This document shows positions 134 through 33,414 of a stretch of DNA of 42,030 nt, piece after piece; positions within the stretch are counted from its first letter, which is position 1, and each line of letters opens with the position of its first letter. A program made the translations under genes and the position numbers. The notes beneath the pieces are model-generated. The model made no database searches. It was not told the origin of the DNA and saw only the letters and a list, made by a program, of their open reading frames with translations. Origin of the DNA: Chiloscyllium plagiosum (Eukaryota); NCBI RefSeq assembly GCF_004010195.1, contig NC_057753.1:7946520-7988549 (forward strand). Reading direction: 5' to 3'.

Positions 134-705
134 TGCAAGAGTGGCACCTCCACATCACTGTAACTAATGACGTTTTAGCCTCGTACCTCCTACAAGTACT
201 GATATAATCCCATTGAACTCCCATAAATTCTGACCCTGTCCCTGAAGATCCCTGTAAATTGTGTTCACTCACTGAGGTTGCTCCGTGATTACAGAGTGGC
301 ACTCTGTAGTGGAATAAACTCCCTGGCCAAACACTTGAAGAAGAAATCAGTTTACAAACATACTCTCGCTGCAGAAAAGATGAGCTCGCATAAGAATCTG
401 AGAACGAAATTACGGGACTGTTTTACTTCTTGAAGGTACGAACTCCGTGAACTCAATTCCTTTCACTTCCCTTGTCTTTCTTCATAACAGTGCACTCTCT
501 TAGGCATCCTTGCAAACTTGAGCAAGACCAAATCAAATTTGAATGCAAATTGAGTTGGAAACACGTATAGATATAAAGTTTGTGATAAAAGCTGTCACCA
601 TCTACATCCTGTCACACTTGGTCCAGCATATCTTGTATCCTCTCCGGATTGTGACCCCGCAACTATGCTCAAAACAATCCAACGTTTCAGGAGATCGACT
701 GGAAG

Positions 706-1380
706 TGAAGATTTGTGACCCCTCAAGATCCGCCTCTTGGTTGGGGATCGGTCAAAAGAATCAACGAAATGCGGTCTGTACAAAAGTAAGGGTCATTAGC
801 CCATTAAATTAAGGTACCTTGATGCAATTCTGTCCAGCAACACAGAGGTTAAAGGTTCTCTGTTCCATGATGAAGTTGTGCAATTACATTCAAAAATTAC
901 ACATTACTTATTTTTTTTTTATTAAGAGATAGAACAACCTTAATTACAAGAAAAGATCAATCACATACTATAACTTGAGCCGATTTACAGCAAGTTAATC
1001 GAAAGATACTTCCTGGGAAAGGGTTCTTAATAACAAAAAAAGTCCCATCAACTGTAATATCGTGACATGATTGACAACAGGCTAATCCATTGGTACTCCC
1101 AGGGAAAGAAATCTTATTTACGTAAATCATCATGCCACGGTTCATTTCAGGGTTAGTGCGAATACTCAATTAATGTGTCAATATTTTCATTTTATGAAAA
1201 CTCCATTGTCCTCTTATTTTTGGATTTCAGCGTAATTTTCCAAAACAGCAGTACAAGTTCACAGGGTTCAATCACTATTCTCAGACATGTTGTTGTATTG
1301 TTTTAAACTGAAAAGCCATTTTGTGGTTAGTAAAAATCTACATATACTTGTTGCTTCAAAATTCAAATTTTAGATCCTCA
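706..1380. mobile_element. Solo LTR (ERV- or Gypsy-like), 675 bp
   Basis: TG...CA termini with imperfect inverted ends (TGAAGAT...ATCCTCA), 4-bp TSD GAAG (702-705, 1381-1384); absent from the paralogous site at about 20955. Confidence 0.75.
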
Positions 1381-1636
1381 GAAGGTGTGGAGAGGCTCCT
1401 TAATGGGATGCAAGATCCTCCACGCTGGACCAATATGCCGGAACAGGCTGGAGGTAAGGTAAGTAGATTATGTGCTGCTCACTAAGCTGTTGCGTCGGGT
1501 TGACTGAATCCATGAGAGAGATTTTAATTTGATTTCGTATATTTTATTGCTACATACAATGTAATGCATTGAAAAGTATTGATTTGATTGCTGTCCAGTG
1601 AAATAATTGTTTGTATAACTAAATTAGGGTAAGACA

Positions 1637-1915
1637 GCCCTGGATCGGCTCAGTGGTCAGTACTGCTGCCTGAATTCAGGGGCTGAATTCGATTCCATTC
1701 CTGGGTGACTGTCAGAGCGGTGTTTGCACGTTCTCGCCAAGTCTGCATTGATTTATTCTGGGTGTTCTAATTTCTTCCCATAGTCCAAAGATATGTAGTG
1801 GAGTCGTTTTAACACGGTTACTATCAGTTTATGGGGTCTGGGAGGGATGTTTATCAGAGGGTCAGTCTGGACCTAATGGGCCAAATTGCCTCTTGCCCTC
1901 TATTAATATTGTATG
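1637..1915 (+). mobile_element. Old degenerate HE1-like SINE, predating the duplication
   Basis: CAGTGGTCAGTACTGCTGCC head and SINE body; counterpart at about 21217-21480. Confidence 0.7.
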
Positions 1916-2801
1916 AATTCAGAATACAGCGCTACAAGGTTCTATTTTAAAATCCCACCTAATTCCTGAATGTATCCATTTCAACAATGGATCATAAATA
2001 TTGACTCTTGTGACTCTGAACATTAAATTTTACAATTTGAGTGAAGGAGTAGCTCATTGCGGACTGTTTGCAGCCACGCTTGTGATTCAGTCCAGTTGAT
2101 GCATTCATTTGGGAATGTTAACATTTATGCAATGGAAAGTATGTGCGGTGTGACACGGAGTGGCAGTAGATTGGCATTGGTGAGATTATGTTCACAGAAT
2201 GAACGCGGGCACAATGTACCAAAAGGTCCCACTCAAGTTGTAAGAATTCTGAAAATCTCTGAATTTGCTTAGGATGTTGGTCTCAAAATAACATGTCCTG
2301 TTTTTTGGGGGGAGTGTTTCTGAATGGCATACTAGCTGTGAAATATGAAAACGTTGCATCATAACATTGCATAAGATGGACAGTTACAGTTTCAAAAGGG
2401 CCTGTGAACCCTGGCATGCTGATTTGAAGCAATTATTGTTATTTCTTGACCTGGAGTGACAGTTGCGCCGGTCTGTATACTAGGCATTTAAACTGTCCTA
2501 TTCTACACCTTTCAACACAATCTCGATAGGCAGGATATTAGAACCTGTTCCGACAGATCTCTCTTCTCTTGCACTTGCACATTGGACGTGTTCTCGATTT
2601 GCACCTAGGATGTAGAAGAAACAATGCACTTACTGAATCTGGGATGTATTCCTTGCTTTCCATTCTGAAGCAGGAGGAAATTTGTCACAATGTCGATCAG
2701 ACCAAACCAAAACTATTAATTAACTGTAATCTAACCCACGTCACATGTAAGTGACGGAATTTTATGCATTCCGTCCTATCGAGTCGAACGTTGTAATGTT
2801 C

Positions 2802-3102
2802 TTAGATTAGATTAAGTATAGTGTGGAAACAGGCCCTTTCACCCAACAAGTCCACACCGACGTGGAACTGACCCAGACCCATTCCCCTACATTTACCCCT
2901 TCAACGAACACTATGGTAATTTAGCATGGCCAATTCACCTAACCTACACATTTTGGACTGTGGGAGGAAACCCGGAGAAAACCCATGTACACACAGGGAG
3001 AATGTGCAAACTCCACAAAGTCAGTCGTCTGAGGTGGAAATTGAACCTGGGTCTCTGCCGCTGTGAGGCAGCAGTGCTAACCACTGTGCCACCGTGCCGC
3101 CC
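2802..3102 (-). mobile_element. HE1-type tRNA-derived SINE
   Basis: Minus strand begins GGGCGGCACGGTGGCACAGTGGTTAGCACTGCTGCCTCACAG (A box), B box GGTTCAATTTCC, (TCTAA)n tail; absent from copy B at about 22380. Confidence 0.9.
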
Positions 3103-5005
3103 TCTTCCTTTACACTTTCCCACCTTCACTTAGTGCAATTTTGTCCGTCAAATGGTGTGCTGAAGTGGAACAACATCCAACAATTGTTGTTAACAATTAT
3201 TGCTGTATAAGCCTGAACTCTTTGTGTTAACATTCAAAACGCAAAACGAGCGTCAAATACCCTTGAAAAGAGATACACCTGGTTGATTCCTTTGATGGAC
3301 TGTTTGACATATTAGATAGGTTTTCAGTACAGCCAAATAAGGGGTGACGCTATTGAAACACAAAATATTCCGAGGTTACATGAGAGTGCAGATATTGGCA
3401 TCATGGTTCTATATGCGTGGAAATTTCATGCCAAGTTACAAAATAATTAAAGAATAGTTGTAGGGCGAGGGTCATTCATTTCAGGCAGTGATGCAAAACA
3501 ATTTATTCTTTCACAGGTTATCAATACTCTATTTTTTTTATTCCAGTCACTTGTGGAACCTATATCACTGAAGGCATTTTTAGAGTTTGTAAAGCATTAA
3601 AACATTGATGGATGTGAGCAGTTGGCACTAACGATGATTTCAGACCTGGGACAGGTAATACGTCATTTTAGAGAATGTTGAAGCAGTTTGAAGGGCTGAA
3701 CGGCTGACTTCTGTTTAAATATCCCACGTTCACAAACACCCGCACTTCTGCCCCACATTGAAAATTCACGATCCCACAGTTTATGACTCTTAATTATCAG
3801 GAACATTGTTTGCATCTTCACCTTTCAGGTATTACACTTTCCATACATTAAAATCTATTTTCTGTAATTTGTGTTCAATACCTTTGTATGGATTATTCTG
3901 CAGTCACTCCTTTGAATGCTGCATTCGAGTCACTATTTTGTTTCACTCTCGGCAGGAGCAAAGAATCGTGGTTCTCCAAGATGACTCTTGTGATGTGCTC
4001 TAAAGTCTCCTATTTGGATTATATTTTTGGCTTTGCAAATATGGGAAACTTTTCCAGTTCACGTTCAACAGAAAGTAATAATGATTTCTATATGGATTTG
4101 TGTTGCATTGAGTGTGGAATTTACAGTCAAGTTGAAGACTGCCAGTGCAATTTTCAAATCATGATAGATGATTGCCACTTGCAGTGCAGCTAACTTTGGG
4201 AACGTAGAAATTGTGATGCTGCATTCAGGGATATTGTTGTAAGCAATGACTGAATGACTAAGCCACGTTTGTCTGTTGGTTGACTTATGCATGTATAGAT
4301 CCCACTGTGCACACACCACTTTTGTGATATTAACAACGATATAGGTAGTGGATTGGCAGTAAATTTTCCAGCCTCCTTCACGAGCAAATGTCCATCCAGT
4401 TGCTGGATGTTTTAGCAGGAGTGCAATTCTGGGAATGTAGCAAAGATGATTTGCAGTGTCTAAACGAGGGAGTCAGAACTGCTACCATGCACCTTGGAAT
4501 CTACATGGGAGGCCTGTGACGTGTACACATTAAGACAGGTTACAAGCCATCAAAATCATCATCAAGAATGAAAGTAGAGATTGTCAACTAAATGTCTGTA
4601 AATTGATGATCCCAACAGATATTATAATTGGACATGGCAATCTTTTGACTGAAATCGGACTTGCCAGCTTTTCTTTGTTTGTTTCGTGACAGTGCAAGCT
4701 TCAGAACTTTAACAACAGGTCAAGGATTGAAAGAAGCAGAAATAACTTTGCTTACAATAAACTGTCAAAGGACAAGTTCAACGTGTTTTGCTGGAATTGA
4801 AACCAGCTAGTCATGTCTGAGACAAGAAGCAGTCGAAGATACACGAACAAAACTGCTTTGACAGCTGCTTGATAAATGGTTGCCTTGTGCCACAAGGACA
4901 AATGGCTTCGCTTCAGGAGAATTTAAGACGTTAATCACAGGAACACTGTGTCTTCAAACAGACAGCAAATTCTAAATGGAACAAGGCAAAAAAGAAAGAA
5001 AATTC

Positions 5006-5659
5006 TAGAACATAGAACATAGAAGAATACAGCGCAGTACAGGCCCTTTAGCCCTCGATGTTGCGCCGATCCAAGCCCACCTAACCTGCGCTAGCCCACT
5101 ATCCTCCATATGCCTATCCAATGCCCGCTTAAATGCCCATAATGAGGGAGAGTCCAGCACTGCTACTGGCAGGGCATTCCATGAACTCACGACTCGCTGA
5201 GTAAAGAATCTACCCCTAACATCTGTCCTATACCTACCACCCCTTAATTTAAAGCTATGCCCCCTCATAATAGCTGACTCCATACGTGGAAAAAGATTCT
5301 CACTGTCGACCCTATCTAAACCCCTAATCATCTTATACACCTCTATCAAGTCACCCCTAAACCTTCTTTACACCATTGAAAACAACCCCAAGTGCCTCAG
5401 CCTTTCCTCATACAATCTTCCTACCATACCAGGCAACATCCTGGTAAACCTCCTCTGCACCCGTCCCAGTGCCTCCACATCCTTCCTATAGTATGGCGAC
5501 CAAAACTGCACACAATACTCCAGATGCGGCCGCACCAGAGTCTTATACAACTGCAACATGACCTCAGTACTCCAGAACTCAATTCCTCGACCAATAAAAG
5601 CCAATACGCCATATGCCATCTTCACCGCACTATTTACCTGGGTGGCAACTTTCAAAGAT
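5006..5659 (-). mobile_element. 5'-truncated CR1 LINE (ORF2 C-terminus plus tail)
   Basis: LYKTLVRPHLEYCVQFWSP and RGHSFKL...FFTQRVV motifs; (TTCTATG)n tail; absent from copy B at about 28145. Confidence 0.93.
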
Positions 5660-6829
5660 AAATAGTAAGGCAAGCTGCCGGCTTGCAATATATCGGAACG
5701 TCACAAATTTGAAGCATGGAAAATTGTATAAGAATTAAACTCCGTGATTTCTGAGGAGCAGAACTCCAGAGAACAGCATTGAATAACCTTGGAGCCCTGG
5801 ACACATCCAGAGACAAAAATGTTGATTGTAATCCTGTCTAAATTCCTAAATGAATTGGTCATACCTAAGTTGTGTTTTGACGCTTCACTTACATATGAAG
5901 CATCATTTTAATTCCAAAATGCAGTGAAGTTCAAATTATTGTTTCAGTATTTGATTTATTATTGAGATGTGGTAATTATGTCGAATTAATGACAGCATGT
6001 AGTCATTTAAACACACATGTTTGTTTTGGTTCTAAAGCATTGTGCCTGTTCGATATACACGCATTTGTTCATGTGTGTTTGAGCGTAACAGCACAACAAA
6101 ACTGTGGCATGCAACATAAATGAAGGTAAAACTTACTAAACCAAGTTATTTATATATAACACAAATATGTTGGGTTACAAACACATGATTAAAACGACTT
6201 CGAACTATATAAAAATTACACCTTTTCAGACGTCACACGGAGAGAACGTCCTTCATTACCACCTGCTTAAAGTTTGCCTTGATTTACGATTAATTCCTAA
6301 TCTTGACAGGTGCATGCAAAGTGGTATTGAGCTAAAATTTTCTATTTTCAAGGAACACCCAAACACGGATTCAAACAAACATTTCAGTTTGATAAACGTT
6401 TGAAAACACATTTCGGTGAGGTCATGCAACAGTTATAAAATGCAAAACTAACTCCCATTCCTCACGTGCAAATGATTTTCAATTGCAGCATTATCCAATG
6501 TTCCTGCAGAACCTTTAACTTCATGCTAAGCTGGTATTTTTCATTTGAAGCTGCAGTTGTTTCCTCGGTTCCAAAATAAAACATGTTTTAGAGTCTGCCA
6601 TCTTCATGTCTAAGACATACATGTTCACTCTGTTTATTCATCAATTTCGAACAAAAATATAGTTTCCTGCTGAAAGTGTTCATCTGAGCAGTCTTTCAAT
6701 AATAATGTTGGCTACCAACTACTTAGTTATCATAGAAAGCCTAGACTGCAAAGTAGGCCAATTGAGACAACACCAACGGTCTGAAGAGCATCCTGTCCAA
6801 AGCCACGCCCTCACTATAACTCTGCATTT

Positions 6830-7058
6830 TGCATGACTAAGCCACATCACCTCCACATTACTGGATACTACGTGCAATTTGCTATGGCTAGACCACATTT
6901 TTGGACACTGGAAGGAAACCATAGCACCCGGAGAAAACAGACGCAGAAATGGAGAGAAAAGCAAATTGCAAACAGAGATTCAAGTGCAAGTCAGATAGAA
7001 CCTGGCTCTCTGGCAGTGTGAAACAGTGGCCCTAACCAATGAGCCAGCGTGCCCACCC
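6830..7058 (-). mobile_element. Old degenerate HE1-like SINE, predating the duplication
   Basis: CACATTTTTGGACACTGGAAGGAAACC...GAACCTGGCTCTCTGGCAGTGTG resembles 2802-3102; counterpart at about 29385-29608. Confidence 0.7.
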
Positions 7059-7595
7059 GAAACGTTAGTCATTATTTTGTTTTAATAGAAACACAGAACC
7101 TATATGCCACTAATTCAAATGGAAAAACAAAATTCAAATGTTACGACTTGACCTTCAAAACAGCAGAACCATAAATAACAGTTAAAAACCTGTAAATTGT
7201 ACACCTTATGTCACAGCACAGCTGTAATAAATTAAAATGGCTTTCCACATAATGGTTGATAGTGGGCCCTGTCGAATGCCATCAGCAAAGCCATTTCTCC
7301 AGCTTCGTTAAGAAAGTGCTGTTTTTCCGTGAAACATTCCATTCAAAACCGTAATCTTCAAAGAAAACATCAAGATTGTTTGGCTAGAACACGACATGGA
7401 AGATCGCAATTTGTGGGTCAACAATATTTAATCGAATTTATTGTGAAACTTGGAACATATGTGAAGACTGCTGTCTGTTGAAATTCGGTGTTCCTATGAG
7501 GATGCAAAATTGAGAACATGCCAGAAACGGCTTTGGATGTGGCATGATCATAGAGTTGACATTCTGTAATCTGAGCTATGGTTCATGTTAAGTTA

Positions 7596-9129
7596 TCACT
7601 TTTTCAATTTTTTGATTATTTTACTGTAGAAATTCATTGTATATTTGAACACCTTGTTCAACTCAACTCTGAATTTAGCCTGGGTGCCAGCATAAATAAA
7701 CGGATTAATGCACGAACTCAATAATTGAAGCATAAATCCCGTTTCTTGGAGAATAAAAATGGAATTGGCAAAATCAGAAGCAGAAGGATATGTCAGATTT
7801 GCAATTCGTACATAGCAAATTGTTACGAAGTATAGCAAATATAACAGGACGAAACTACCCGAGACCGTGAAAAGTAAAACAATGGACTTTCTCCTTCTTT
7901 CCACCTCTGGGTCGCTCTGATTTTCTCTCGTGCTGTGGGACCGGAGTTTCCTACGGCTTCTATTAGCTGTAAGAATGTGTCTGATGGTCAGCACATTGAG
8001 CAGTAATATCAGAAGAAAAGGGAGACAAGGTGTTAAAATAATTCGAATCCAGTCGTATGCAGCCCATGCAAGGGATGTATAAACAATCGCCTTTATTCCG
8101 CAGAGCCAAGGTGTATTGTCAATTACATAGATAGGTTCATACGCAAAATATGAGACAGTGTTTTTGAGACAGCTCATAATAGACAGAATTCCTATGACCC
8201 ACGCAGCTATCTTCTTAGTACAATATTTCAGTTTCAGTGTCTTGCAAGAAATTGCCACAAATCGATCAACAGTGAAAAAAACGGTTAACCAGGCAGAACT
8301 GTCAAGGGCTGCATAATTTAGAGCAGAACGAAGACTACATATTGGTGTGATGAACAAGAAACTAAATGGAAAATAAATTCCAGCAACACGGTTTAGTATT
8401 ACAGCCGTCAGCATCACCAGGAGATCCGTTACAGCCATGGACACCAAGTAATACGTGACGCATTGACACAGACCACATCTTCCTCGAGACAGGACAACAA
8501 TCACTATACAGTTAGCTTCCAGAGAGAGAGAAAGAGAAATTACGTAAGAACATACATTCATTAAGAGAGGGCAATGGCTTAGTGGCACTGAAATTGATAA
8601 GTAATCAAGAGACTGACATAACATCATTGATTCTGAAATGTCAATTATGCAATTCACTTATTTTCATGGAATTAGGAGTCTGGTGATTACCATGAAACGA
8701 TGGTCATAAAATCCTACCTGATTCCTTAATGCTCTTCACGGAAGGAATGCTACAATTGTAAATTAATCAGACATATATGTGAGCCAAGATGCACGACAAT
8801 GTTTCAATAATGAAAACTAAATCTGCAGAAGTAATCATCGCCCCGAAAATAAAACCGAGCTAGATTGTGTCAAGTATACCAAGAAAGACGAAAAACAAAG
8901 GAAGCAGCTCGATATAATACATTAAGGCAATGATGAAAAAAAATGATCCCATTGGAGGGAAAGAAGAGTACTTGTCATGTGCAGAAGCATCACTGTAAAT
9001 ATTGGAGTCTTTATGTAGATAAAGAATGGCTCATTTAAGAGCTGAGTAGAATTTTTTACCTGGAATCCCGACAGCAGCTAGTACTGGATAGTAAATAGCA
9101 AACAGCAGCCCTGTCAACATTTCATGCAT
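7596..9129 (-). CDS. GPR139/GPR142-like class A GPCR, copy A; exons 9129-9060 and 8515-7596; 329 aa
   Basis: Exon 1 MHEMLTGLLFAIYYPVLAAVGIP+G, donor GTAAAA at 9059; polypyrimidine tract and AG acceptor at 8517-8516 restore P-A-N in TM1. Seven TM segments with TDLL (TM2), DRF (TM3), ECL2 Cys (PWLC), NPFIY (TM7) and helix 8 KFR. Confidence 0.9.
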
Positions 9130-9167
9130 TTTTAAGCACGTGTGCATATCATTGCAAAGTAGCCTCA

Positions 9168-9214
9168 CTTATACCTGATGCTTGACTCAAGGGGACTAAT
9201 TAGTTTGTTCATTC
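9168..9214 (-). promoter_or_regulatory. Putative core promoter: TATAAG plus adjacent EBF-like and homeodomain sites
   Basis: TATAAG at 9173-9168; ACTCAAGGGGA abutting CTAATTAG at 9185-9203; 30 nt identical to 31739-31768 at the same distance from the ATG. Confidence 0.5.
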
Positions 9215-11759
9215 TTTTGTCATTAGTACAGTCAAATTAACACGTTATATACAGCAGATGCGATTTTCTGATTTGATGGAAAGAAATTGTTTTGCTTTTC
9301 ATGTAAGGTTGCTCTGACGGAACTTCACATAAAATTCAGAATGAATCTAGTAGCATCCTCAGAGCATGAATGTCAGTTAAAAGTACAGGTATTTTTCAAT
9401 TAAAAGTTCGCATTTCTGGAGAATACGCAGCTCAGGTCAGATTTTCAGCATAATTCCGTCTGCGATCTAGCTTATCAGGCATAGCACGTTTTCGAATTTC
9501 CTTGGGACTGTGCTTTAGAAAATCTGTGCATCTGAAGTGTTCCGTTTTCTAGGATCAGTCAAGTCCTGTCAGATTTGATATGCATTGCCTCAATTGTATG
9601 TTTTCACATGTTCGCTGTGCTTTCACAGGACATTTTCTTTCTATCATTCTGGACAAGATCACTGCAACATGACCAGTTCCACTGCAACAATCCTACTCAG
9701 TATGGTAAGGTGCAGATTCTGATCAGATGTATTCAGTAGCGACATGTTAAGATCAAGGTTTATAAACTGAATGAAAACTGCCCTATTCCAGCATCGTGTC
9801 TTTAGGCCACATTTTCTGTGCAAGTGCTGATCTCACTCAGATTATTATTCCACTCTTACTTTATATGAAAGGACTGAGTTCTGCAGTTCAGAAAGAAGAA
9901 TACAATCAGGGCTCCATCAACAATGTGGAGCAGCAAGTCAATTCTGACAGTTATATTATAGGAAAGAGGCAGAAAGAAAAAAGGAAATTATCACAGTGGC
10001 CATCTGTAATAAATAGTTCAGAATGGCAATGCTGTAGTTATTAAATGACTAAACAGAGCCTGGTAACCTTAACGTAAAACAAAGGTTTCTTGTGGTTAAC
10101 TGGCAAACGCTCAACTAGAGAGATGAACGGTCTCTGAGCAGAGTATTACAAATGCACACCTATTATCCTAATCGAGTAAACCTTAGGCTCTTACCACTAG
10201 GCATATGATGGCCTAATTGACTGGCAGATCTAATTGCCCACTACCTACATTCGGACTTCCCCTAACTTATTCCACTCACGTCATTGATCCCTTTGACTCG
10301 AACACGCTGTAATCGAATTATATTTTGATAGTATGTGCTTTTTTCAGTTTATCTCTCCGGAGTTATGTATTCGTCATTATGTTCCAGGACTCTTCTTATA
10401 ATTTATGGGGGCGCCAGGTGGGACGTAACACAATTCTAATCAGTACTCCCATTTTCAAATTAGAGCCTTGGTTTATGCGTTAAAGTTAAAATTGCTGATA
10501 ATTGTGCCGTGGGCTAGTTACACTCCTGGATACCCTGAGACCATATTGGTCTGACATCAAATACCTCTTCCATTCCCAAGCTGATGTCCCAACAAACGGA
10601 CTACATTATTGTGATTAGCTGCATCTTGAGCGGTATGAGTGCTAGAACAACATGTTTCATTAGTTATCTATAATTACTACAATATCTGCATCTATGTATA
10701 ATCTAAATTAGTACATTTATATAACTATGCAATTAAAACAAAACTTAAATACGTCATGACAAAATTCATTCTGACATGAAGGTTACGTATAACCAAGTAT
10801 AATTAGCCAAATTCAAGGTCATAGCAGTGCTCATGATTCTTCGATAAATGCAATAACAAGGAGGGTCTTACTGAAACTAGAGTACATAAATCTGGAAATA
10901 AACGAGAGCCACTTGGCATTGAAACTGTAATCTAAAATATTAGTTCGTTGCTTACATACTGTACAGAATTCCCTGAATTATTTCTTTGTCAAATGAAGCT
11001 TAAGTAATACCACAGGACGCTGGAATATTAATATCTGCATTGCCGACATAATCAGACTACCGTGATATCAGATTAATTGAGAAACATACAGATAACTGAT
11101 CAGAACTAAACTAAATCAATTATGAAATCTATGTTTACTTATTAAACTCTCAGGTAAAAAAAATGATCTTATCTAGCTTTACTTCGCATTACTGTTTCCC
11201 AAAACGTATTTCATCTTTTTGCATGCTATGTGATATTTTAAAATAGAAAATTAGCTCAACCAAGTGAAACTGACCTTGCTATATTTAAGTTACATATTGT
11301 GACTTGTCAGAAACTAGTTATCTACCTGACTATAAAGGTAGCTTACTTTTCTTTACGTTTTCACCTCTTAATTCGTGGCATATTCAAATCGTCGAAGGAT
11401 GACTCAAATACCAACTTATCTCGGATTCAGTGTGCGACACCGATCAGGGGAGCAAATGCAAACGATCATTCTGAAATTAGATGTTTTTCATTAAATACTA
11501 CTTCCAGACATATTGTTTCGATTCACTAAATAAGATAAACCAATATATATCATTCCACCCGTGTCAGTATAGCAGTTATACAATTCGCTAAGTATGTATT
11601 CATTAATAAAGTACAGAATTCAAACTTTTGGAAAGTCATATATGTTCTTGACAGATGTGAAAAGAAACCATTTCGTGGAATGTGTAGGAGTTTTTTTCAA
11701 GACCTTACTCTGTATTGCATTTTGTTGTTGTGTATTACTCTGCATCCATCTTTTTTGTA

Positions 11760-14571: not shown

Positions 14572-17107
14572 TCAAAATTGTTTTATATTAAGCAGTAGGC
14601 TCAGCGGATATTTTACACCTTCTCTAATTCAGTTCTGAATTTACTCTGAGTACAGCATAAATAAATGGATTGATGCAGGAACTCAATAATTGAAGCACAT
14701 ATCCACATCAATGTCGAAACGATTCCAGAGACTGAGTAGTAAAGAGCATTTGAAATTCCAACATTCTGTATCGTGACAAAAAACTACTAAATTCAACAGA
14801 AGAAAACTGCCTGAGATTGCGAAGAGGTAAACAATAGATTCCTTTCCCTTTTCCATTTCCAGGTCACTTTGATTCTCTCTATTCCTCTGGATATGGAGGC
14901 TCCAGCAGGATTTTTAACTGCTACAATGTGTCTGACAGTCAGAGCATTGAGCAGTAAAATGAGAATAAATAGGCGCATAGGGTTTAAAATGCCACGAAAG
15001 CATTCGTAGGCGGCCCATGCAGCTGGCAAATAATATACCTTTTAAGATGGAGACAGTGAGGTCTTCAATTGCTGGAGATCAGTGTTGAGTGTGTGTTTTT
15101 GATTCAGATTCCTTATGAAGGGCTCTGGCCCGAAACATCGATTTTCCTGTTCCTCGGTTGCTGCCTGACCTGCTGTGCTTTTCCAGCAACACACTGTCAT
15201 ACGTTTTAAGATGCAGAGCCAGGGTATCTTGTTCTCTATGTCGATAGGTTCGAAAGCAAAATAAATGCAGGTATTTTTAGGGAGCACAGCGTAGACACAA
15301 TACCTAGAACTCCAATAGCCACATTCTCTGTACAGGACTTTATTTTTTGCTTCTGGCCATAAATGGCCACAAATGAAGCAAACGTGACACTGACATTAAA
15401 CAGATAGAAATGTTGACAACTGCAAAATTTATTGCAGTGCACACACTGCATACGGGTGTGACAGATAGGAAACTATAAGTTGAAAGTCCAATTTTTTAAT
15501 CCAATGTACTATCACAGCCGTGACTATGCCTAGAAGATCGGCTATTTCCATGGACAACAAGTAATAAATGATGCATCCAGGGAGACTGCACCTTCGGGAG
15601 AAGATCACGATTACTGTCAGGTTAGCGGCTGGAGAAAAAGACAAGACAATCGAAACGGATTCGACTCGAATAAAATCATTCATTGCATTGCACTCTGTGC
15701 CATTCGAAGAGTTGAGGCACGAACAAAGGTGGAAAGTGGCCTCTCATGCCGGGTCACTTATTTGGTAAGTTTGACACAGTCACCTTGATTAAAATATGCG
15801 ACATCAATGACTCAAAGATGAAGGAAATGTCATGAGCTCTGACAAAATTCAAGAAGAAATGGAAACGTACATCTAACCAATCACAGCAACATCAAGAAAA
15901 TGATAAGCCAGCAAAGAAACATAGATATACTGAAGTAAGCAAATAATAGAAGAAGCAGCAATATGTCTAGAAAAGACATAAACTCAGGTTTTACCATAAC
16001 CAGAATTTAATACGGCTTCCTTTCAACGAAATATCTGAAAAAAGTTCACCTTTGAAAACATTGAAAGATCATTTATTCAAACACGATCGGACACAAAAAG
16101 ACGTGAGCAGGAAATCTGTGTTTCTTCAATTTTGTTGCAGAAATTTTGACCCATCATTACAACATGCTATATCAGTGTCTATGGTGTGAAGCAGACAGTA
16201 TTAAAGATTGAGAGCAGAAAAAAGTAACTGTTCTATGTTGCAGCCAACTACAAATCATCCATTAACAGGAAACACTTTACAGTAGTGCGAAAATCGTGGA
16301 GCTGAATATACTTTACTTCATAAGGGCATTCACCGAATTTCGCCTTAAATTGTTCAATATTTAAATTCTCTGAACAGAGCAACCATCGTGAGTATTCCCC
16401 CCATTCTAAATTAACCTTAACATCATACATCCCAACTGTTACAATGTCATAATTAAAGCACTGAAAGAATCGACATGAAGAAAAGAGAATTTCAATTACA
16501 CTGAGATGATATTGTGGATATTCAATTGCATGAGCATCGCCAATGATACAACAGAACTCCTTCCAACCATAATAACTGTTGGCGATTCAAAAACAATGGT
16601 CTGCCACTAATACAGTGACATGATTTTCATTTGTGATGAAATTACAGTAAGTTTGGAAGGTTATGTGTTTAAACTTGTGGGATGTTTTTGAGGTAAACAG
16701 GCAGTGTAACTTTACAGAAAACACATGTTATGGTTCAATGGAGATGGGACTTCTATGCCAATAATAGAATAACAACGGAATTAAATTCAGTGAAGGAAAG
16801 CACTGAAATCGTGAAACTCGGCCAATAAATAGGAAAAATCGTAACTTGAACATGAAGTGTTTAGGAACACGCAACTGAAGGTAAAGACATTGCAGCTGAG
16901 ACCAGATTAATGCAGGCTCATTAAAGCATATTCATACTATGTAGAATAGTAACCGTAAAAATGGGAAGGACTCATTATGAATTACGTAGTTTTATAGAGT
17001 GAATGATGTAGATTGTGAAATTTAACAAATATTTTACCTGGAAGTCCAATTGCTGCAAAGAAGGGATGGTAAATGGCAAACTGCAGACCTTTTACTCATG
17101 CATGCAT
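14572..17107 (-). pseudogene. GPR139-like GPCR pseudogene; exon 1 17107-17038, exon 2 about 15628-14572
   Basis: Exon 1 reads MHA*VKGLQFAIYHPFFAAIGLP+G then GTAAAA (70 nt, in-frame TGA). Exon 2 has fragments ANLTVIVIFSRRC..YYLLSM..ADLL, PWLC, AWAAY, LLNALTVRHI and LQLLSSCINPFIYA in different frames, plus an insertion at 15050-15198. Confidence 0.88.
15050..15198. mobile_element. Short Penelope-derived element inserted in the pseudogene
   Basis: Same family as 18840-19063; 15-bp TSD ATAC(C/G)TTTTAAGATG at 15035-15049 and 15199-15213; degenerate hammerhead-like core at 15112-15139. Confidence 0.8.
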
Positions 17108-17444
17108 GTCTATCAGAAGCTGCGAATGCATTTGCTAAACCCTTCAAAATGAATGGTATTGTGCACATGTCAGGTTCCAGGGAATTATATGAAATTGTAT
17201 ATTCATGAAAGTAGTTTCAATAAGCAAATGAGTTGTAAGTACAGGAACTCTGGCGTTGATACAATATTGCAGCAGATGGTTTTTCATAGAATGTGCCAAG
17301 GACCGAAGTTGGAATATCCAGCACTTATACAAAAGAGGCATTGCAAAGAGAAATTCTGAAAAAAATGGGTCTGTCCAAAGTCGTTGTGTATTTCGCTGAC
17401 CAGACCAGACTTCTCTTACCATGTGTCATGCATCCATATCCGGT

Positions 17445-18839: not shown

Positions 18840-19063
18840 GGGGAAAGTGAGGACTGCAGATTCTGGAGATCAGAGCTAAAAATGTGTTGCTGGAAAAGCG
18901 CAGCAGGTCAGGCAGCATCCAAGGAGCAGGAGAATCGACGTTTCGGGCATGAGCCCTTCTTCAGGGTTCCTGAAGAAGGGCTCATGCCCGAAACGTCGGT
19001 TCTCCTGCTTCTTGGATGCTGCCTGACCTGCTACGCTTTTCCAGCAACACATTTTCAGCTCAG
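18840..19063. mobile_element. Penelope-derived hairpin element with two inverted hammerhead-like cores
   Basis: 93-bp inverted arms (18873-18965 / 18969-19061); CTGAAGA-A-GGGC-TCAT-GCCC-GAAAC-GTC on both strands; 14-bp TSD TTTAAAT(A/G)ACACAA at 18826-18839 and 19064-19077. Confidence 0.85.
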
Positions 19064-19998: not shown

Positions 19999-20520
19999 CA
20001 CTATCAATACTGACACAGTCCACTAGGAGTCACTGTATATACAGATAAAATTCTCATGGTTGCCCTGTAAATACTGAACTACTTCCTATGGACTATCATA
20101 AATGCTGACATACCTTCTACGCTGCCACTGTAAACGATGTTAAACAACACACATCAGGTAATAGTCTCATAGGTTTATTTGGAAGTACTAGCTTTCGGTG
20201 GTCTGAACCATGATCAGGTAGCTGTGGAGCAGGGTCATAATACATAGTGTTATAAATTCTGTGCATTATAATCCTACCTTACAGCTACCTTATGAAGCAG
20301 AAGTACTCCGAAAGCCAATAATTTGAAATTAGCCTGTCGGACTATAACCTGGTGTTGTGCGATTTCTAACTTGGTCCATTCCAGTCGAACACCGGCACTT
20401 CCACATCACTGTAAATAATGACGTTATAGTCCAGGACGTCCTACAAGTGCTGATACATTCCCAATGCACTCCTCTAAATACTGACCCTGTCCCTGAAGAT
20501 TCCTATAAATACTATTCACT
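19999..20520. repeat. Degenerate 31-32 bp minisatellite interrupted by a Penelope-derived insertion
   Basis: CACTGTAAATACTGAC-like core at 19999, 20031, 20063, 20094 and 20126, resuming at 20407 and about 20439, 20470 and 20501. Confidence 0.55.
20140..20406. mobile_element. Older Penelope-derived hairpin element (second family)
   Basis: Imperfect inverted arms (about 20139-20247 / 20258-20371) with CT(G/T)ATNA...CCGAAAGC cores; flanked by CACTGTAAA(CG/TA)ATG. Confidence 0.7.
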
Positions 20521-21216
20521 AATTGAGAATGTTCCATGATTACATAGTGACCCTATGTACGTGAAAACAAACTGCCTGGCACACCATTTGAAGAAGAAAT
20601 CAGCTTTAAAAAATCTTCTTGCTACAGAAACGATAAGCCAGCATTAGAATCCGAGAGCGATAGTCTGGAACTGTTTTAACTTCTTGAAGGTACGAACTGC
20701 CTGACCTGAAATCCTTTCACTTTCCTTGACTTTCTCCACAACAGTGCACATTCCTGGGAATTTTCCAGCCCTGGACAAGACCAAATGGAATTTGGATGCA
20801 AGGACAATCAGAAACACTTATTAATAGAAAGTCTGCGATCTACACTGTAACCAAGTGCATCCTGTCAGAACTGATCCAGCATATCTACTATCCTCACCGG
20901 CCTGTGACCCTGTAACTATGCTCAGAGAAATCCGACATTTTGGCTGATCTGCTGGAAGAAGGGTTGGAGAACTTCCTTACAGGGATGCAGGATCTTCCAT
21001 GCTGGGTCAACCTCCCAGCAGCAGGCTGGTTGAAATCTAAGGAGATTATATGCCACTCATTTAGCTGTCGAGTAGAATTCATTGAATAGATGCATGAGAG
21101 CATTTAATTTGGTTTGATATATCTTATTGTCACATATATTGTAATACAATGAAAAGTATTGTTTTGCATCCTATCCAGCAAAATCATTCCTTGTATAAGT
21201 ACATCAAGCCAATTCA

Positions 21217-21480
21217 GCCCTGCAGCCGCTCTGTGGTTAGCACTGCTGCCTCACAGCACCAGGTTCTGAGATTCGATTTCAGTCCTGGGGAATGTCAGCG
21301 CAGTGTTTTCACATTCTCCCCATTTCTGTGTTGGTTTCCTTTTGCAGTCCAAAGATAAGCCGGGTAGTCGTATTCGCATGTTTAATATCAGGTTATGGCG
21401 TCTAGGTGGGACGTTTTTCAGAGAGTCAGTCTGGTTCTAATGGGCCAAATGGCCTCTTTCATTTTTGTAACGATTGTATG
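21217..21480 (+). mobile_element. Old degenerate HE1-like SINE
   Basis: GTGGTTAGCACTGCTGCCTCACAGC head; paralogue of 1637-1915. Confidence 0.75.
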
Positions 21481-22887
21481 GTTTCAGAATATAGTGCTCC
21501 AAGGTCCAAATTAAAATCTCACCCAGTTCCTGAATGTTCTCAGTTCAACCATGTTTACTTCTATGAATTATTGACTGTAGGGGTCCTGAAAATTAAGTTA
21601 CAGAACTTGAGTGAGGGATTGCTCTTTACGAACTGTTTGCCAGCCACGCTTGTGATTCAGTTCAATCGATGCATTTATTTGGGTATGTCAATCTTTATGG
21701 AATGTAAACAATGTGCAGTGTGAGGCAGAGAGGCAGCAGATTGGCATAAGGTGAGAATTTGGTTCAGGGAATTAATGTAGACACAACGTACTGAAATGTC
21801 CCAGTCATTATGTAATAATTTTGTAATTTTCTGAATTTGCTTAAGATCTTGTTCTCAAAAGAATATGTTCTAGTTTTTTTCTAGAGAGTGTTACTTAGTG
21901 GCATACTAGCATTGAAGTATGACAATGATGCGTCGTGAATCTTCACATGATGTGGGCAGTTACGGAGCCGGAGGCATGCTGATTTGAATCATTGTTTTTG
22001 ATTTATTGAGCAGACGTGATAGTCGCACAGTCTAAATACTAGGTTGTAAACTTGTCTTATTCCCAGACAGATTACACCATTCAACATAATCAATTTCGTT
22101 AGGAATTCGCAGCCTCTCGCCACAGAGCTCTCTTCTCATGAACTTGCACACTAGACTTGTTCCGTTTGTACCTTTGTCATAAAAAATATGCACTTGCTGA
22201 ATATGTGATGAATTTCATGCTTTCTGTTCTTAAGCAAGAAGAATTTCGACACATTTTCGATCAGAACAAACGAACGCCATTTCTAACTGATATCTATCCC
22301 GACACACACCGACAAAACCATGGCAGCGCGAGAATTCTATGCACTTCGTCCTATCGAGGTGACTGCTATCATGCAATTTTCTTTTTTAATTTTTCCCATG
22401 GTCACTTGGGACAATTATGATCTTCACAATGGCGCGCTGAAGTGGAACAACATCCAACAATTGTTCTTAACAATCATTGCTGTATAAGCCGGAACTCGTT
22501 GGCTTATCATTCAAAATTCAAAACCAGCGTCGAATACCCTTGAAAAGAGATACGCCTGGTTGATACGTTGGATGAATTGCTTAATATATCAGAGTAAGAG
22601 TTGATGCTTTTGAAACACAAAATATCACGAGAGGATTTCAGAGATCAGATATTGGCATCATGGTTCGACTTGTGAGGGAGTTCCATGCCAAGTTACAAAA
22701 ACATTGTAGAATGGTTGTTGAATGACAGCCATTCATTTCAGGCTCCGATAGAATGTAATTTCTTCTTTAAGAGATGATCAATATCTCAATTTCTCTATCC
22801 CAGGCACTAGAGGAATCCATATCACTGAAAGCCTTTTTAGAATTTGTGAAGCATCAAAACATTGATGGATGTGAGGATTGGCACTTA

Positions 22888-25800
22888 AAGACCATAAGAC
22901 CATAAGACCTAGGAGTGGAAGTAAGGCCATTCGGCCCATCGAGTCCACTCCGCCATTCAATCATGGCTGATGCGCATTTCAGTTCCACTTATCAGCGTTC
23001 TCCCCGTAGCCCTTAATTCCTCTAGACAACAAGAATCTATCAATCTCGGCCTTGAAGACATTTAGCGTCCCGGCTTCCACTGCACTCCGTGGCAATGAAT
23101 TCCACAGGCCCATCACTCTCTGGCTGAAGAAATGTTTCCGCATTTCTGTCCTGAAATGGCCCCCTCTAATTCTAAGGCTGTGTCCACGGGTCCTAGTCTC
23201 CTCGTCTAACCGAAACAATTTCCTAGCATCCACCTTTTCCAAGCCATGTATTATTTTGTACGTCTCTATTAAGTCTCCACTTAATCTTCTAAACTCCAAC
23301 GAATACAATCCCAGTATCCCCAGTCGTTCCTCATATGTTAGACCTGTCATTCCAGGGATCATCAGTGTGAATCTCCGCTGGACACGTTCCAGTGCCAGTA
23401 TGTCCTTCCTGAGGTAAGGGGACCAAAACTGGACACAGTACTCCAAATGGGGCCTAACCAGAGCTTTATAAAGTCTTAGTAGTACATCTCTGCTTTTATA
23501 TTCCAACCCTCTTGAGATAAGAGACAACATTGCATTCGCTTTCTTAATCACGGACTCAACCTGCATGTTTACCTTTAGAGAATCCTCGACTAGCACTCCC
23601 AGATCCCTTTGTGCATTGGCTTTATTAATTTTCTCACCATTTAGAAAGTAGTCTATGCTTTTATTATTTTTGCCAAAGTGCAAGACCTCGCACCTGCTCA
23701 CGTTAAATTCCATCAGCNNNNNNNNNNNNNNNNNNNNNNNNNNNNNNNNNNNNNNNNNNNNNNNNNNNNNNNNNNNNNNNNNNNNNNNNNNNNNNNNNNN
23801 NNNNNNNNNNNNNNNNNNNNNNNNNNNNNNNNNNNNNNNNNNNNNNNNNNNNNNNNNNNNNNNNNNNNNNNNNNNNNNNNNNNNNNNNNNNNNNNNNNNN
23901 NNNNNNNNNNNNNNNNNNNNNNNNNNNNNNNNNNNNNNNNNNNNNNNNNNNNNNNNNNNNNNNNNNNNNNNNNNNNNNNNNNNNNNNNNNNNNNNNNNNN
24001 NNNNNNNNNNNNNNNNNNNNNNNNNNNNNNNNNNNNNNNNNNNNNNNNNNNNNNNNNNNNNNNNNNNNNNNNNNNNNNNNNNNNNNNNNNNNNNNNNNNN
24101 NNNNNNNNNNNNNNNNNNNNNNNNNNNNNNNNNNNNNNNNNNNNNNNNNNNNNNNNNNNNNNNNNNNNNNNNNNNNNNNNNNNNNNNNNNNNNNNNNNNN
24201 NNNNNNNNNNNNNNNNNNNNNNNNNNNNNNNNNNNNNNNNNNNNNNNNNTGACCTCCCTTTACTAAATTCATGTTGACTTGTTCTAATCAGACTCTGCTC
24301 TTCCAAGAATTTAGAAACCTCATCCTTAATGATGGATTCTAGAATTTTACCAACAACCGAGGTTAAGCTGATTGGCCTATAATTTTCCATCTTTTGCCTT
24401 GATTCTTTCTTGAACAAGGGGGTTACAACAGCCATCTTCCAATCATCCGGGACCTTTCCTGACTCCAGTGGCTCTTGAAAGATCTCAACCAATGCCTCTG
24501 CTATTTCCTCAGCCACCTCTCTCAGAACTCTAGGGTGTATCCCATCGGGGCCAGGAGATTTATCAATTTTAAGACTTTTTAATTTTTCTAGCACTATCTC
24601 TTTCGTAATGGCAGCCATACTCAACTCAGCCCCGTGACACCCTTTAATTTTTGGGATATTACTCATGTCTTCCACTGTGAAAATTGACGCAAAGTACTTG
24701 TTAAGTTCTCCTGCTATTTCCTTATCTCCCATCACTAGGCTTCCTGCATCAGTTTGAAGTGGCCCAATGTCTACTTTTGCCTGTCGTTTGTTTCTTATGT
24801 ACTGAAAGAAACTTTTACTATTATTTCTAATATTACTGGCTAGCCTACCTTCATATTTGATCCTCTCATTTCTTATTACACTCTTTGTTATCCTCTGTTT
24901 GCTTTTGTATCCTTCCCAATCTTCTGATTTCCCACTGTTCTTAGCCACTTTATAGGATCTCTCTTTTTCTTTAATACATTTCCTGACTTCCTTTGTCAGC
25001 CAAGGTTGTCTAATCCCTCCCCGGTTAATCTTTCTTTTCTTGGGAGTGATCCTCTGTACAGTGTCCTCAATTATACCTACAAACTCCTGCCATTTTTGCT
25101 CTGCTGTCTTCCCGGTTAGCCTCTGCTTCCAGTCTATTTTAGTCAGTTCCTCTCTCATGCCCTCATAATTACCTTTATTCAACTGTAACACCATTACATC
25201 CGATTTTGCCTTCTCCCTTTCAAACTCCAGACTGTACTCTACCATATTATGGTCGCTACTTCCTAAGGGTTCCCTTATTTTAAGATCTTTTATAGAGTCT
25301 GGTTCATTGCAAAGCACTAGGTTCAGAATAGCCTGCTCTCTTGTGGGCTCCATGACAAGCTGTTCCAAAAATCCATCCTGTAAGCATTCCATGAATTCCC
25401 TTTCTTTAGATCCACTAACAACATTATTTACCCAGTCCACCTGCATATTGAAGTCTCCCATGATCAATGTAACCTTGCCTTTCTGACATGCCTTCTCTAT
25501 TTCCCGGTACATGTTATGTCCCTGGTCCTGACCACTGTTAGGGGGTCTATACACAACTCCAATTATGTTTTTTTTTGCCTTTGTGGTTCCTCAATTCCAC
25601 CCACACAGACTCCACATCATCCGACGCTATGTCATTCAATATCATAGATTTAATTTTGTTCTTAACTAACAAGGCAACCCCACCCCCTCTGCCCACCTCT
25701 CTGTCTGTTCGATAAGTTGAAAGACCATGGAGGTTTAACTGCCAGTCCTGACCCCCCTGTAACCAAGTCTCTGTGGTGCCTACTACATCATAATCATTCA

Positions 25801-29117: not shown

Positions 29118-29253
29118 AATGTACAGAGAAATTTATTACCTCCAGGAGGTAATAAATTTGGCCTTGATTTTTATTTGGCCTTGATTTTTATGTCCTCTTT
29201 GTCTACAGGAGTAGTGCCAGAAGACTGGAGGATAGCAAATGTGGTTCCCTTGT
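29118..29253. other. Copy-B-specific complex insertion: palindrome, tandem duplication and internal CR1 fragment
   Basis: 15-bp perfect inverted repeat (29129-29143 / 29145-29159), 17-bp direct repeat (29157-29190), then CR1 ORF2 piece LALIFMSSLSTGVVPEDWRIANVVPL. Confidence 0.8.
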
Positions 29254-29384
29254 CAACAATAAATAATTTTGGCTGCTGAACTACTCGGATCTCACACAAT
29301 GCCAAGACTTAAATAGTAGGCACGTTGAGTCTGGAGTCATTCCATCCAAAACTCTGCCAATTCTATAAGTCAGCATTTCCCATG

Positions 29385-29608
29385 AATAAACCACGTCACT
29401 TCCACATTCTTGGATACTATGTACAATTTGCTATGGATAAACCCCATTTTTCGACTGTGAAGTGAAACCAAAGCAACCGGAGAAAACACACGCGCACACA
29501 GAAAGAATGGGCAAATTGCACACAGAGAGTCTAATGGAAGTCGGATAGAACCTGAGTATCTGGCGCTGTGAAGCAGCAGGACAAACCAAAGAGCGACCCT
29601 GCTCACGC
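29385..29608 (-). mobile_element. Old degenerate HE1-like SINE
   Basis: GAACCTGAGTATCTGGCGCTGTGAAGCAGCAG; paralogue of 6830-7058. Confidence 0.7.
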
Positions 29609-30163: not shown

Positions 30164-31683
30164 CTATTTCAAATGTTTGAGTATTTTACTGAAGAAACTT
30201 ATCGGATATATGAGCCCCTTCTTTAATTGAACTCTGAATTTAGCCTGGGTGCCCGCATAAATAAACGGATTAATGCACGAACTCAATAACTGAAGCATAA
30301 ATCCCATTTCTTGGAGAATAAATATGGAATTCGTAAAATCAGAAGCAGATGGATATGTCAGCTTTGCAATTCGTACATAGCAAATCGTTAGAAAGCATAA
30401 CAAATATAACAGGATGAAACTACCCGACACAGTGAAAAGTAAGACAATGGATTTTCTCCTCTTTTCCACCTCTGGATCGCTCTGATTTTCCCCAGTGCTC
30501 TGGGCCCGGAGTTTCCTGCGGGTTCTATTTGCTGTCAGAATGTGTCTGACGGTCAGTGCATTGAGCAGCACTATCAGAATAAAGGGCAGACAAGGTGTTA
30601 AAATAATTCGAATCCAGTCGTATGCAGCCCATGCAAGTGATGTATAAACAATGGCCTTTATTCCGCAGAGCCAGGGTGTATTGTCAATTACGTAGACAGG
30701 TTCATATGCAAAATATGAAACCGTGTTTATGAGAAAGCTCGTAACAGACACTATTCCTGTGATCCACGCAGCCATCTTTTTCGTACAAAATTTCATTTTC
30801 AGTGTCTTACAAGAAATTGCTACAAATCGATCAAAAGTGAAAAAAACGGTTAACCAGGCAGAACTGTCAAGGGCTGCATAATTTAAAACAGAACGAAGGC
30901 TACATATTGGTGTGATGAACAAGAAACTATAAGGAAAATAAATTCCAGCAACACGGTTTAGTATTACAGCCGTCAACATCACCAGGAGATCCGTCATGCC
31001 CATAGACACCAAATAAAACGTGATGCATTGAGATAGCCCGCATCTTCCTCGAGAAAGTATAACGACCACTGCACAGTTCGCTTCCAGAGAGAGAGAGAAA
31101 GAGAAAGCAAGTAAGAACACACATTTATTAATAAGAGGAAATGGCTCAGTGGCATTGTAATTGATAAGTAATCAAGAGATTAGCTTAAGGTTGATGGTTC
31201 CGAAATTTCCATTATGCCATTCAGTTTTTATTACCATTAAACAATATTCATAAAATCCCACCTGATTCTCTAACGGTCTTTATGGAAAGATTGCTACTTC
31301 TGTAAATTGATCGGCCGTACATGTGACACCAAAGGCACGGCAATGTTTCAATAATGAAAACTCTATCTGCAGAAGTAAGAAATCACTTACTCTGAAATAA
31401 GCCGAGCTAGATTGTGTCGACTATACCAAGAACAACGAGAAAAAAAGAAAGAAAACAGTTCGATGATATACATTACAGTAAGGTTGAGTAAAATTGGTCT
31501 CATTGAATAGAAAGAATGATTCTTGTCATGTGCAAAATCATCACTGTTAATATTCAGTCTTTATGCAGATAACCAATGGCTCATTGAGCAGCTAACTGAG
31601 TACAATTCTTTACCTGGAATCCCGATTGTTGCGAGTACTGGGTAGTAAATAGCAAACAGCAGACCTCTCAGTATTTCATGCAT
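30164..31683 (-). CDS. GPR139/GPR142-like class A GPCR, copy B; exons 31683-31614 and 31080-30164; 328 aa
   Basis: Exon 1 MHEILRGLLFAIYYPVLATIGIP+G, donor GTAAAG; acceptor TCTCTGGAAG at 31081; intact 7TM with DRF, PWLC and NPFIY. Confidence 0.9.
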
Positions 31684-31721
31684 TTTTGAACACGTCTGTA
31701 AATCATTGCAAATTAGCTTCA

Positions 31722-31768
31722 CTTATACCTGATACTTCACTCAAGGGGACTAATTAGTTTGTTCATTC
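31722..31768 (-). promoter_or_regulatory. Putative core promoter: TATAAG plus adjacent EBF-like and homeodomain sites
   Basis: Same motifs and same offsets from the ATG (39 and 56 nt) as 9168-9214. Confidence 0.5.
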
Positions 31769-33414
31769 CTTTACCATTGGTACAGTCAAACTAACATGTT
31801 ATTTACTGCTGATGCGATTTTCTGACTTGATGGAAAGGAATCGGTTTGCTTTTCATGGGACGTGGCTCTGAAAAGCTTTGCAGAGAATTCAGAATAGGAC
31901 TAGTAACATCTATGCAGCTTGGATGTCAGTTAAATGTACTGACATTTCTCGATTAGAAATTCATATTTCTGGGGAATACACACCTCAGGTCAAACTTTCA
32001 GCATAATTCTGGCTGTGATCTTGCTTATCAGGCATGGCACGTTTTCGAATATCCTTGGGAATGTGCACTCACTTGAGAAAATCTGTGCATCTCAGCGTGT
32101 TTTGTTTTCTAGGTCAGTTAAGTCCTGTTAGATTCGATATGCATTGCCTCAATAGTATGTTTTAACATTCTCGCTGTACTTGCACTGGACATTTTAATTT
32201 CTGCAAATCAGGACAAGATCACTGCAATGTGATGAGGTCCACTGCAACAATCACATTCAGTATGGCCAGGTGCAGATTCTGATCAGATATATTCAGTCGC
32301 GATATGTAAAGTTCAAGATTTATAAGTTTGTTGAAAACCGACGCGTTTCAGCATCTTGTCATTGGGCCACATTTTCTGAACAAGTGCTGATCCCACTCAG
32401 ATTATTATGCCACTCTTCCTTTGTATGAAAGGACTGAGTTCTGTATTTCAATAAGAAGACTCCAATCAGGGCTTCGTCAGCAATGCGGAGCAGCAAATCA
32501 ATTTTGGCAGTTACATTATAGAGAAAAAGTCGAATGAAAAGGCAAACACAGCGGCCATCTATAATTAATACTGCAAAATGTAGTTATCAAATGACTAAGC
32601 AGATTCTGGTTACCTTAAAGTAAAACGAACGTTGATTACAGTTAACTGGGAAACTCTCATCTAGAGAGTTGAATAGTTTCTGAGCAGAGTCTTACAAATA
32701 CCCACATATTATCTTAAACAATTTATTTTGTAGCTCGGTGTTTTGTTAAAATAAGAGAAAATAAAATCTTTTTCGCACTTACCACTAGGCATATGACTCC
32801 CTAATTTTCTGGTAGGTATAATTGACCACTATCTACTTCAGGATTTCCCAATCTTAACCCATACGTGTGTCATGACTCCCTTTGCCCCGAACATACTACA
32901 ATCAAGTAATATTTTGACAATATGTGTATTTTCCGATTTATCTCAACGAAGTTATGTACTCCTCATCATATTCTAGGATTCTACTTATAATTTATATGGT
33001 CACCAGGCGAGACATGATGCAATTCTATTTGGTGCTCTCGTTTTCAGCTGAGACACTTCTTTTCTGCATTAATTACCATAAGATAAAGTTGCTGACAATT
33101 GTGTAGTGCGCTAGTTACACACCAGGACATCCTGAGACCATATTTATTTGAAATCAAATTCCTCTTTTATTCCCATGTTGACGTCCCAGCATGGGTTTTG
33201 ACAACATTATTCCGATTAGCTATGTCTTGAGGGGTAAGAGTGCTAGATCAACATATTGCGTTAGTTGTACATATTTACTACGATATCTGCATCCATATGT
33301 AATTCAAAATTGTATACATTATAAAATTAAAAACAAAACTTAAATACGTCATGACAAAATTCATTATGACATGAAGGTGACATTTAACCAACTATAATTA
33401 GCCAGATTCAACTT

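Follow-up and report, generated by a model that had tools for sequence, protein, structure and literature searches.

A candidate Lhx2/EBF composite site in the proximal promoters of two duplicated GPR139/142-related receptor genes of the shark Chiloscyllium plagiosum

We analyzed a stretch of 42,030 nucleotides of the Chiloscyllium plagiosum genome (NCBI RefSeq assembly GCF_004010195.1, contig NC_057753.1, positions 7,946,520 to 7,988,549 of the forward strand; hereafter the window) and found that two intact receptor genes carry an identical candidate composite site for a homeodomain protein and EBF. Its sequence on the gene strand is TAATTAG-TCCCC-TTGAG; it lies 73-57 nt before the ATG and just upstream of TATAAG. 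Our tentative reading, which we hold to be possible though short of probable, is that the TATA promoter is driven in olfactory neurons through this composite, with an Lhx-type homeodomain protein bound next to an EBF dimer. Olfactory control by Lhx/EBF is a plausible and cheaply testable lead. The features of the window are collected in Table 1.

Table 1. Features of the two receptor genes and the related pseudogene, in window positions.
Feature	Position	Strand	Remark or basis
AATAAA, candidate poly(A) signal	6633..6638	-	in a stretch identical between the copies
Coding exon 2, copy 1	7596..8515	-	TM1 end to stop; 7tm_1
Intron, copy 1	8516..9059	-	544 nt, GT-AG; deduced from homologue proteins
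Coding exon 1, copy 1	9060..9129	-	short N-terminus and TM1; phase-1 GT donor
Proximal upstream region, copy 1	9130..9279	-	131/150 columns identical between copies
TATAAG box, copy 1	9168..9173	-	sequence
Candidate Lhx2/EBF composite TAATTAG-TCCCC-TTGAG, copy 1	9186..9202	-	published pattern and Sfaktiria probe register
Subparts of composite, copy 1	9202-9197; 9195-9186	-	homeodomain core; EBF-like half-sites
Second O/E-like word TCCCAAGGA, copy 1	9499..9507	-	~370 nt upstream of ATG; common to copy 2
Broken exon 2, pseudogene	14605..15659	-	stops, frameshifts, repeat insertion near 15109-15199
Exon 1, third pseudogenic paralogue	17038..17107	-	in-frame stop at codon 4
O/E-like word TCCCTGGAA, pseudogene	17175..17183	-	76 nt upstream of pseudogene ATG; aligns with EBF half of copies 1/2
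Coding exon 2, copy 2	30164..31080	-	
Coding exon 1, copy 2	31614..31683	-	
TATAAG box, copy 2	31722..31727	-	
Candidate composite, copy 2	31740..31756	-	identical to copy 1
Second O/E-like word, copy 2	32052..32060	-	

The first-pass annotation had described both genes as intact, and they are indeed intact two-exon class A GPCR genes. The true start is a 70-nt exon with a phase-1 GT donor and not 8627, where the long ORF of the plain ORF list begins; the minus-strand ATG at 9129 (copy 1) and 31683 (copy 2) opens this coding exon. It matches the N-terminus of the homologues: a regex places the start of 76 of 120 at this point, and inspection by eye adds 10. Each intact gene lies in one of two tandem copies of an 11.5-kb unit, at 143-11681 and 20394-34797, between which sits the third, broken paralogue. 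Comparison of the intact copies gave a dS of 0.27 and a dN/dS of 0.28 (exon 2 only) and a non-coding divergence of 0.245. The dN/dS value indicates that both receptor genes are under purifying selection, and the similarity of dS to the non-coding divergence indicates near-neutral drift of the non-coding background. Candidate mobile sequences likewise occur within the window. At 18873-19061 lies what seems to be a small mobile element with inverted repeats: over 189 nt the sequence matches its reverse complement at 94%, and related pieces are found at 33707-33775 and, within the pseudogene's exon 2, at 15109-15199. LINE-like ORF pieces of reverse transcriptase, endonuclease, and esterase type, which we take to be CR1-like, lie at 22979-26824, 35506-37564, 40555-42030, and 5006-5659, and an assembly gap of 532 N occupies 23718-24249.

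The upstream block had been reported as 30 nt identical in both copies, and indeed 9185-9214 equals 31739-31768 letter for letter, the exact identity stopping at 30 nt. The distances given for it are also correct: in both copies the block lies 56 nt, and the end of TATAAG 39 nt, upstream of the ATG. Within the window ACTCAAGGGGA occurs solely at 9185 and 31739, and CTAATTAG solely at 9196 and 31750. The additional shared word TCCTTGGGA was likewise recovered in both copies, with 9499 and 32052 as its sole occurrences in the window. Because public DNA contigs of run X2, which is possibly the source sample, span 8381-9971 with only 2 differing letters, the sequence of the promoter region is not an assembly error. 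Two further words lie between the TATA box and the ATG on the minus strand, namely TTTGCAAT at 9150-9158 in both copies, presumably a C/EBP-like word, and CACGTG / GACGTG at 9137-9142. Two coding interpretations of the region were rejected: the small upstream ORF that would begin within the identical block has 15 codons in copy 1 and stops after 9 in copy 2, and an alternative coding exon using a GT before TATAAG is out of frame with exon 2. An Rfam scan gave 0 matches.

The site agrees with the composite pattern printed in PMC11643329 at 17/17 positions, at 9202-9186 and at 31756-31740; the trailing [4] of that pattern is ambiguous and was matched here with no mismatches. The spacing from the homeodomain to the EBF part equals that of the Sfaktiria EMSA probe, as given in the relevant part of PMC5608512. 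In this one respect the motif reading of the first-pass annotation is stronger than was realized, the spacing corresponding exactly to the Greek Island Lhx2/Ebf register. The same source (Monahan et al. 2017), in the sections on the composite, reports that the fusion protein binds less well once 2 bp are inserted, describes the EBF half as relaxed, and uses a HOMER score over 10 as the threshold for a composite match. The published pattern alone is too loose to carry meaning, as it matched 85 times in the window and 95 times in shuffles. Tightened patterns, in forms picked after the site had been seen, have no match in the 42 kb beyond the two promoter sites, where 0.27 matches were expected. 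Stepwise tightening with similarly post hoc forms gave 7, 4, and 2 matches against 9.1, 2.0, and 0.8 expected, corresponding to a chance of about 4%, 1%, and 0.4% per given 200 nt for these post hoc forms. The earlier caveat that the EBF match is imperfect was well founded: the palindrome is 5/8 by inspection, and the proximal site is absent both from the 9 one-mismatch TCCCNNGGGA matches and from the 77 YYYCARRRR matches in the window. The distal word at 9499/32052 passes YYYCARRRR and is a better O/E match; such words number 77 against 70 by chance.

The region upstream of the pseudogene aligns weakly with those of the intact copies (34 and 79 of 1000 shuffles reach the score). The homeodomain core TAATTA and the TATA box are not kept there, although a decayed copy is a weak test either way. 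Among the 3 family upstream regions compared, the composite is present in the 2 close duplicates, and the pseudogene has the EBF-like half only. A metagenome scan with the exon-1 pattern returned 2 matches, both by chance in unrelated DNA. A chance likeness, in which an AT-rich TAATTA beside a run of C was inherited from one ancestor and the composite has no role even if a real TATA promoter is adjacent, is in our estimate somewhat unlikely. In its favor are the frequency with which the composite pattern arises by chance, the poor EBF half, and the absence of the homeodomain half in the pseudogene, and the motif was found post hoc, after one had been looked for. It accords less well with the restriction of the strict pattern forms to the two promoters and with the exact Greek Island register, which the first-pass annotation had not invoked.

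Conservation between the copies bears on the same question. The earlier caveat that background identity is high proved correct, since non-coding identity amounts to 79% (0.791). The 30-nt identical run is by itself unremarkable, as 674 of 2000 permutations of the 8818 aligned non-coding columns gave a run of at least 30 (p=0.34). Runs of at least 30 were also reached in 237/2000 permutations of the main block and, at the local identity of the 201 columns upstream of the ATG, in 452/5000. Equal or longer exact non-coding runs occur elsewhere, with 36 nt at 10735-10770 and another 30 nt at 3159-3188. The former run (copy near 33340-33375), ~1.6 kb upstream of the ATG, could be a second regulatory patch or chance; it contains an ACGTCA word, which we take to be CRE-like. 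Over the 150 ungapped columns upstream of the ATG, 131/150 are identical (87%) against the background of 0.791 (binomial p=0.006), a level reached by 3.6% of sliding windows, at 5 loci. The span 9168-9214 is identical at 45/47 positions, which is equalled at 3 loci in the duplicated unit, and the next 200 nt (9280-9479) are at background (154/199). The proximal upstream position is thus more conserved than background and modestly special. The high background and the equal or longer runs elsewhere favor a chance likeness, whereas the excess identity of the proximal 150 nt argues against it. The two promoter copies derive from one ancestral event, a single tandem duplication, and their sites count once.

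A CA dinucleotide is located 30 nt downstream of the first T of the TATA box in both copies, and this TATA and CA geometry suggests that transcription of copy 1 may start near 9143. In the mechanism that we tentatively favor, the block would belong to the core promoter of both intact receptor genes, to which it came by a single tandem duplication of the 11.5-kb unit, and modest constraint would have preserved it. TAATTA would be bound by a LIM-type homeodomain protein (Lhx2/9) and the adjacent TCCCC-TTGAG by an EBF dimer, in the Greek Island register. These factors would bring the basal machinery to the TATA box, which lies about 13 nt downstream, and in olfactory sensory neurons a short-leader mRNA would begin some 14 nt ahead of the ATG. 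Each member of the GPR139/142-related family would then act as a small-molecule chemoreceptor.

Public reads were compared with the window. X5 and X6 are single-cell runs from one sample with the same species label and the tissue unstated, and neither contained a read of at least 90% likeness: 11 of 12,955,460 records aligned in X5 (about 2% of the run), none at 90% or above, and 0 of 8,328,510 in X6. In X7, 36 contigs aligned, none with at least 95% likeness. The matches in X5 and X7 came from repeats and from a distant, apparently rearranged paralogue. Eight X5 reads at 8240-8316 derive from this distant paralogue and have a flank that is not family-like, which suggests that a rearranged copy is transcribed at a low level. 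X5, X6, and X7 showed no splice joint, piled read ends, or start site, and with the tissue unstated they neither support nor refute expression. The lack of a start site in them is compatible with a start further upstream, in which case the block would not be a promoter and would lie in an intron or exon of the 5' UTR, with CTAAT resembling a branch point. Mouse OR genes often have non-coding first exons, and in the public models P0023, P0052, P0057, P0076, and P0091 the gene begins upstream of the usual start. However, copies 1 and 2 share no pyrimidine-rich AG acceptor in the interval from the block to the ATG, and the TATA and CA geometry is kept in both copies; we regard a distal start as very unlikely.

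The receptors gave 7tm_1 only in Pfam. Vertebrate OR identity was ruled out by this result together with the two coding exons and with TRHR and GPR139 as the closest solved relatives. With the exon-2 protein as query, 2787 candidates yielded 556 homologues at E <=1e-10. Among the 120 best, all but one (119) are assigned to sharks by name, 71 of them to Heterodontus, and the automatic name of most is 'probable G-protein coupled receptor 139'. Human GPR139 was missed by a single-sequence search at E 0.001, and against solved structures the family profile scored GPR139 (E 3.5e-13) and the TRH receptor (E 2.3e-13) level. The agonist contacts of GPR139 are presumably a His in TM5 and an Arg in TM6, and the positions aligned with these hold Arg and Tyr/Cys in the window copies. 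Orthology with GPR139/GPR142 was rejected, since the likeness is distant and the pocket His and Arg are replaced; the shark family is a related clade. The profile search found 132 representatives at E <=1e-30, and the 10 of the 150 listed matches that were checked include stingray, salamanders, coelacanth, and two teleosts. These low-copy relatives in bony vertebrates are possibly the clade of the orphan 'GPR210', which the pertinent part of PMC6504862 places near GPR139/142 in coelacanth, gar, and fishes. In the available text of PMC8455134, GPR142 is named only as an orthogroup label. The relatives P0221, P0227, P0234, and P0258 (salamanders, coelacanth, teleosts) offer a zebrafish-accessible route to function.

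The ligand pocket is variable within the family. Across the 120 homologues, 17 pocket-facing positions average 1.52 bits, and 40 other positions in the outer TM halves average 0.92 bits (p=0.002), in a sample that is dominated by one species and whose sequences are not independent, and with an approximate pocket numbering. Sliding the pocket set by 1-2 residues gave 1.16-1.27 bits. As far as sequences tell, the family size, the tandem birth-and-death, and the variable pocket would fit a chemosensor with varied small ligands, a description that names no tissue. Several members, including P0070, P0098, and P0120, have Trp in TM6 where most of the family have Tyr, and 5/120 homologues have Arg at the position aligned with the TM6 Arg of GPR139; these TM6 Trp/Arg members are candidates for aromatic amino acid sensing.

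A functional homeodomain site, perhaps with EBF, could also drive expression outside the nose, in other sensory cells (taste, solitary chemosensory, ampullary, or somatosensory ganglia) or in leukocytes, the family being an analogue of MRGPR- or FPR-type expansions. EBF1 acts in B cells, and homeodomain and EBF factors act in many neurons. The four RefSeq accessions for one protein of the bamboo-shark paralogue P0047 suggest transcript evidence from routinely sampled tissues. According to the passages concerned, cartilaginous fishes are without the MAS1-related family (PMC8455134), and OR genes of the catshark have expression outside olfactory tissue, for instance in the ampullae (PMC11979771). 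We nevertheless judge non-olfactory expression unlikely. The 1-bp-spaced composite was described, in the accounts at hand, from olfactory neurons, and in many of the family's public models the first exon is wrong, as would be expected if the genes are missing from RNA-seq of the usual tissues. Two catshark observations speak against olfactory control. The relevant section of PMC10116579 describes olfactory neurons that are microvillous and V2R-dominated and in which ORs are not expressed. The top 50 brain-and-olfactory-specific catshark genes in the available portion of PMC11979771 include no GPCR, which is weak evidence as V2Rs are also missing there.

The lead matters because, despite their keen smell, sharks have been credited with only a few dozen olfactory receptors, as counted in part of PMC10116579. 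It is rather doubtful that the wider claim holds, namely that hundreds of GPR139/142-related genes, each with the Lhx2/EBF composite of the distal Greek Island enhancers of mammals in its proximal promoter, form a fifth, undescribed olfactory receptor family of sharks. Were it true, the current picture of shark smell, with about 40 genes of mostly V2R type, would be incomplete, and the composite would predate the split of cartilaginous and bony vertebrates and have served an unrelated receptor family. Should both olfactory expression and a family-wide promoter composite hold, vertebrate olfaction would gain a new receptor family and the composite grammar would be dated to the jawed-vertebrate ancestor; otherwise the duplicated gene simply has a conserved promoter of the ordinary kind. 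With a variable pocket and a promoter word in the register of Lhx2/EBF, this large family of orphan GPCRs can be tested directly and cheaply. Our search, with subscription journals largely outside it, found no paper dealing with the shark family or describing Lhx2/EBF sites in promoters of sharks; the promoter word in this register remains a lead.

Among known receptors, human GPR139 (PDB 7VUG, 9M42) and GPR142 resemble the shark family in being class A with a short N-terminus and in sharing the motifs YY..L...G.PAN in TM1, S.W.TV..T.DR in TM3, and WI in TM5; they are single-copy in mammals, whereas the shark family numbers hundreds. The bony-vertebrate relatives (coelacanth, salamanders, silverside, anchovy) also differ in having few copies; with coelacanth XP_005988539.1 the identity is 34% over 302 aa (E 7e-42).

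With respect to regulation, the shark site shares with the Greek Island composite the TAAT core, two purines, a pyrimidine run and a purine run in the same register, and the relaxed EBF half. The Greek Island composite belongs to mouse intergenic enhancers of OR clusters, whereas the candidate site in this cartilaginous fish lies 13 nt upstream of the TATA box of a non-OR gene. The HD2 of the J element is a mouse OR enhancer case of the composite, as described in part of PMC7804114. The first-pass annotation had regarded paired sites as defining vertebrate OR promoters and enhancers. Mouse OR promoters do require HD and O/E sites. The composite of abutting sites, however, belongs to enhancers, being enriched there and not in promoters according to the pertinent sections of PMC12547500, PMC11643329, and PMC7804114, and depleted from OR promoters in those of PMC11643329. 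Mouse OR promoters such as M71 and MOR23, as presented in part in PMC12547500, resemble the shark promoters in having AT-rich upstream sequence with words of HD and O/E-like type and, close to a clustered GPCR gene, a box similar to TATA; they are without the abutting composite that the shark genes have. The shark receptors moreover have an intron in the TM1-coding sequence and belong to a different GPCR branch from mouse ORs. The shark site would therefore be better described as an enhancer-type word in a promoter position, for which the term 'OR-promoter type' is inexact.
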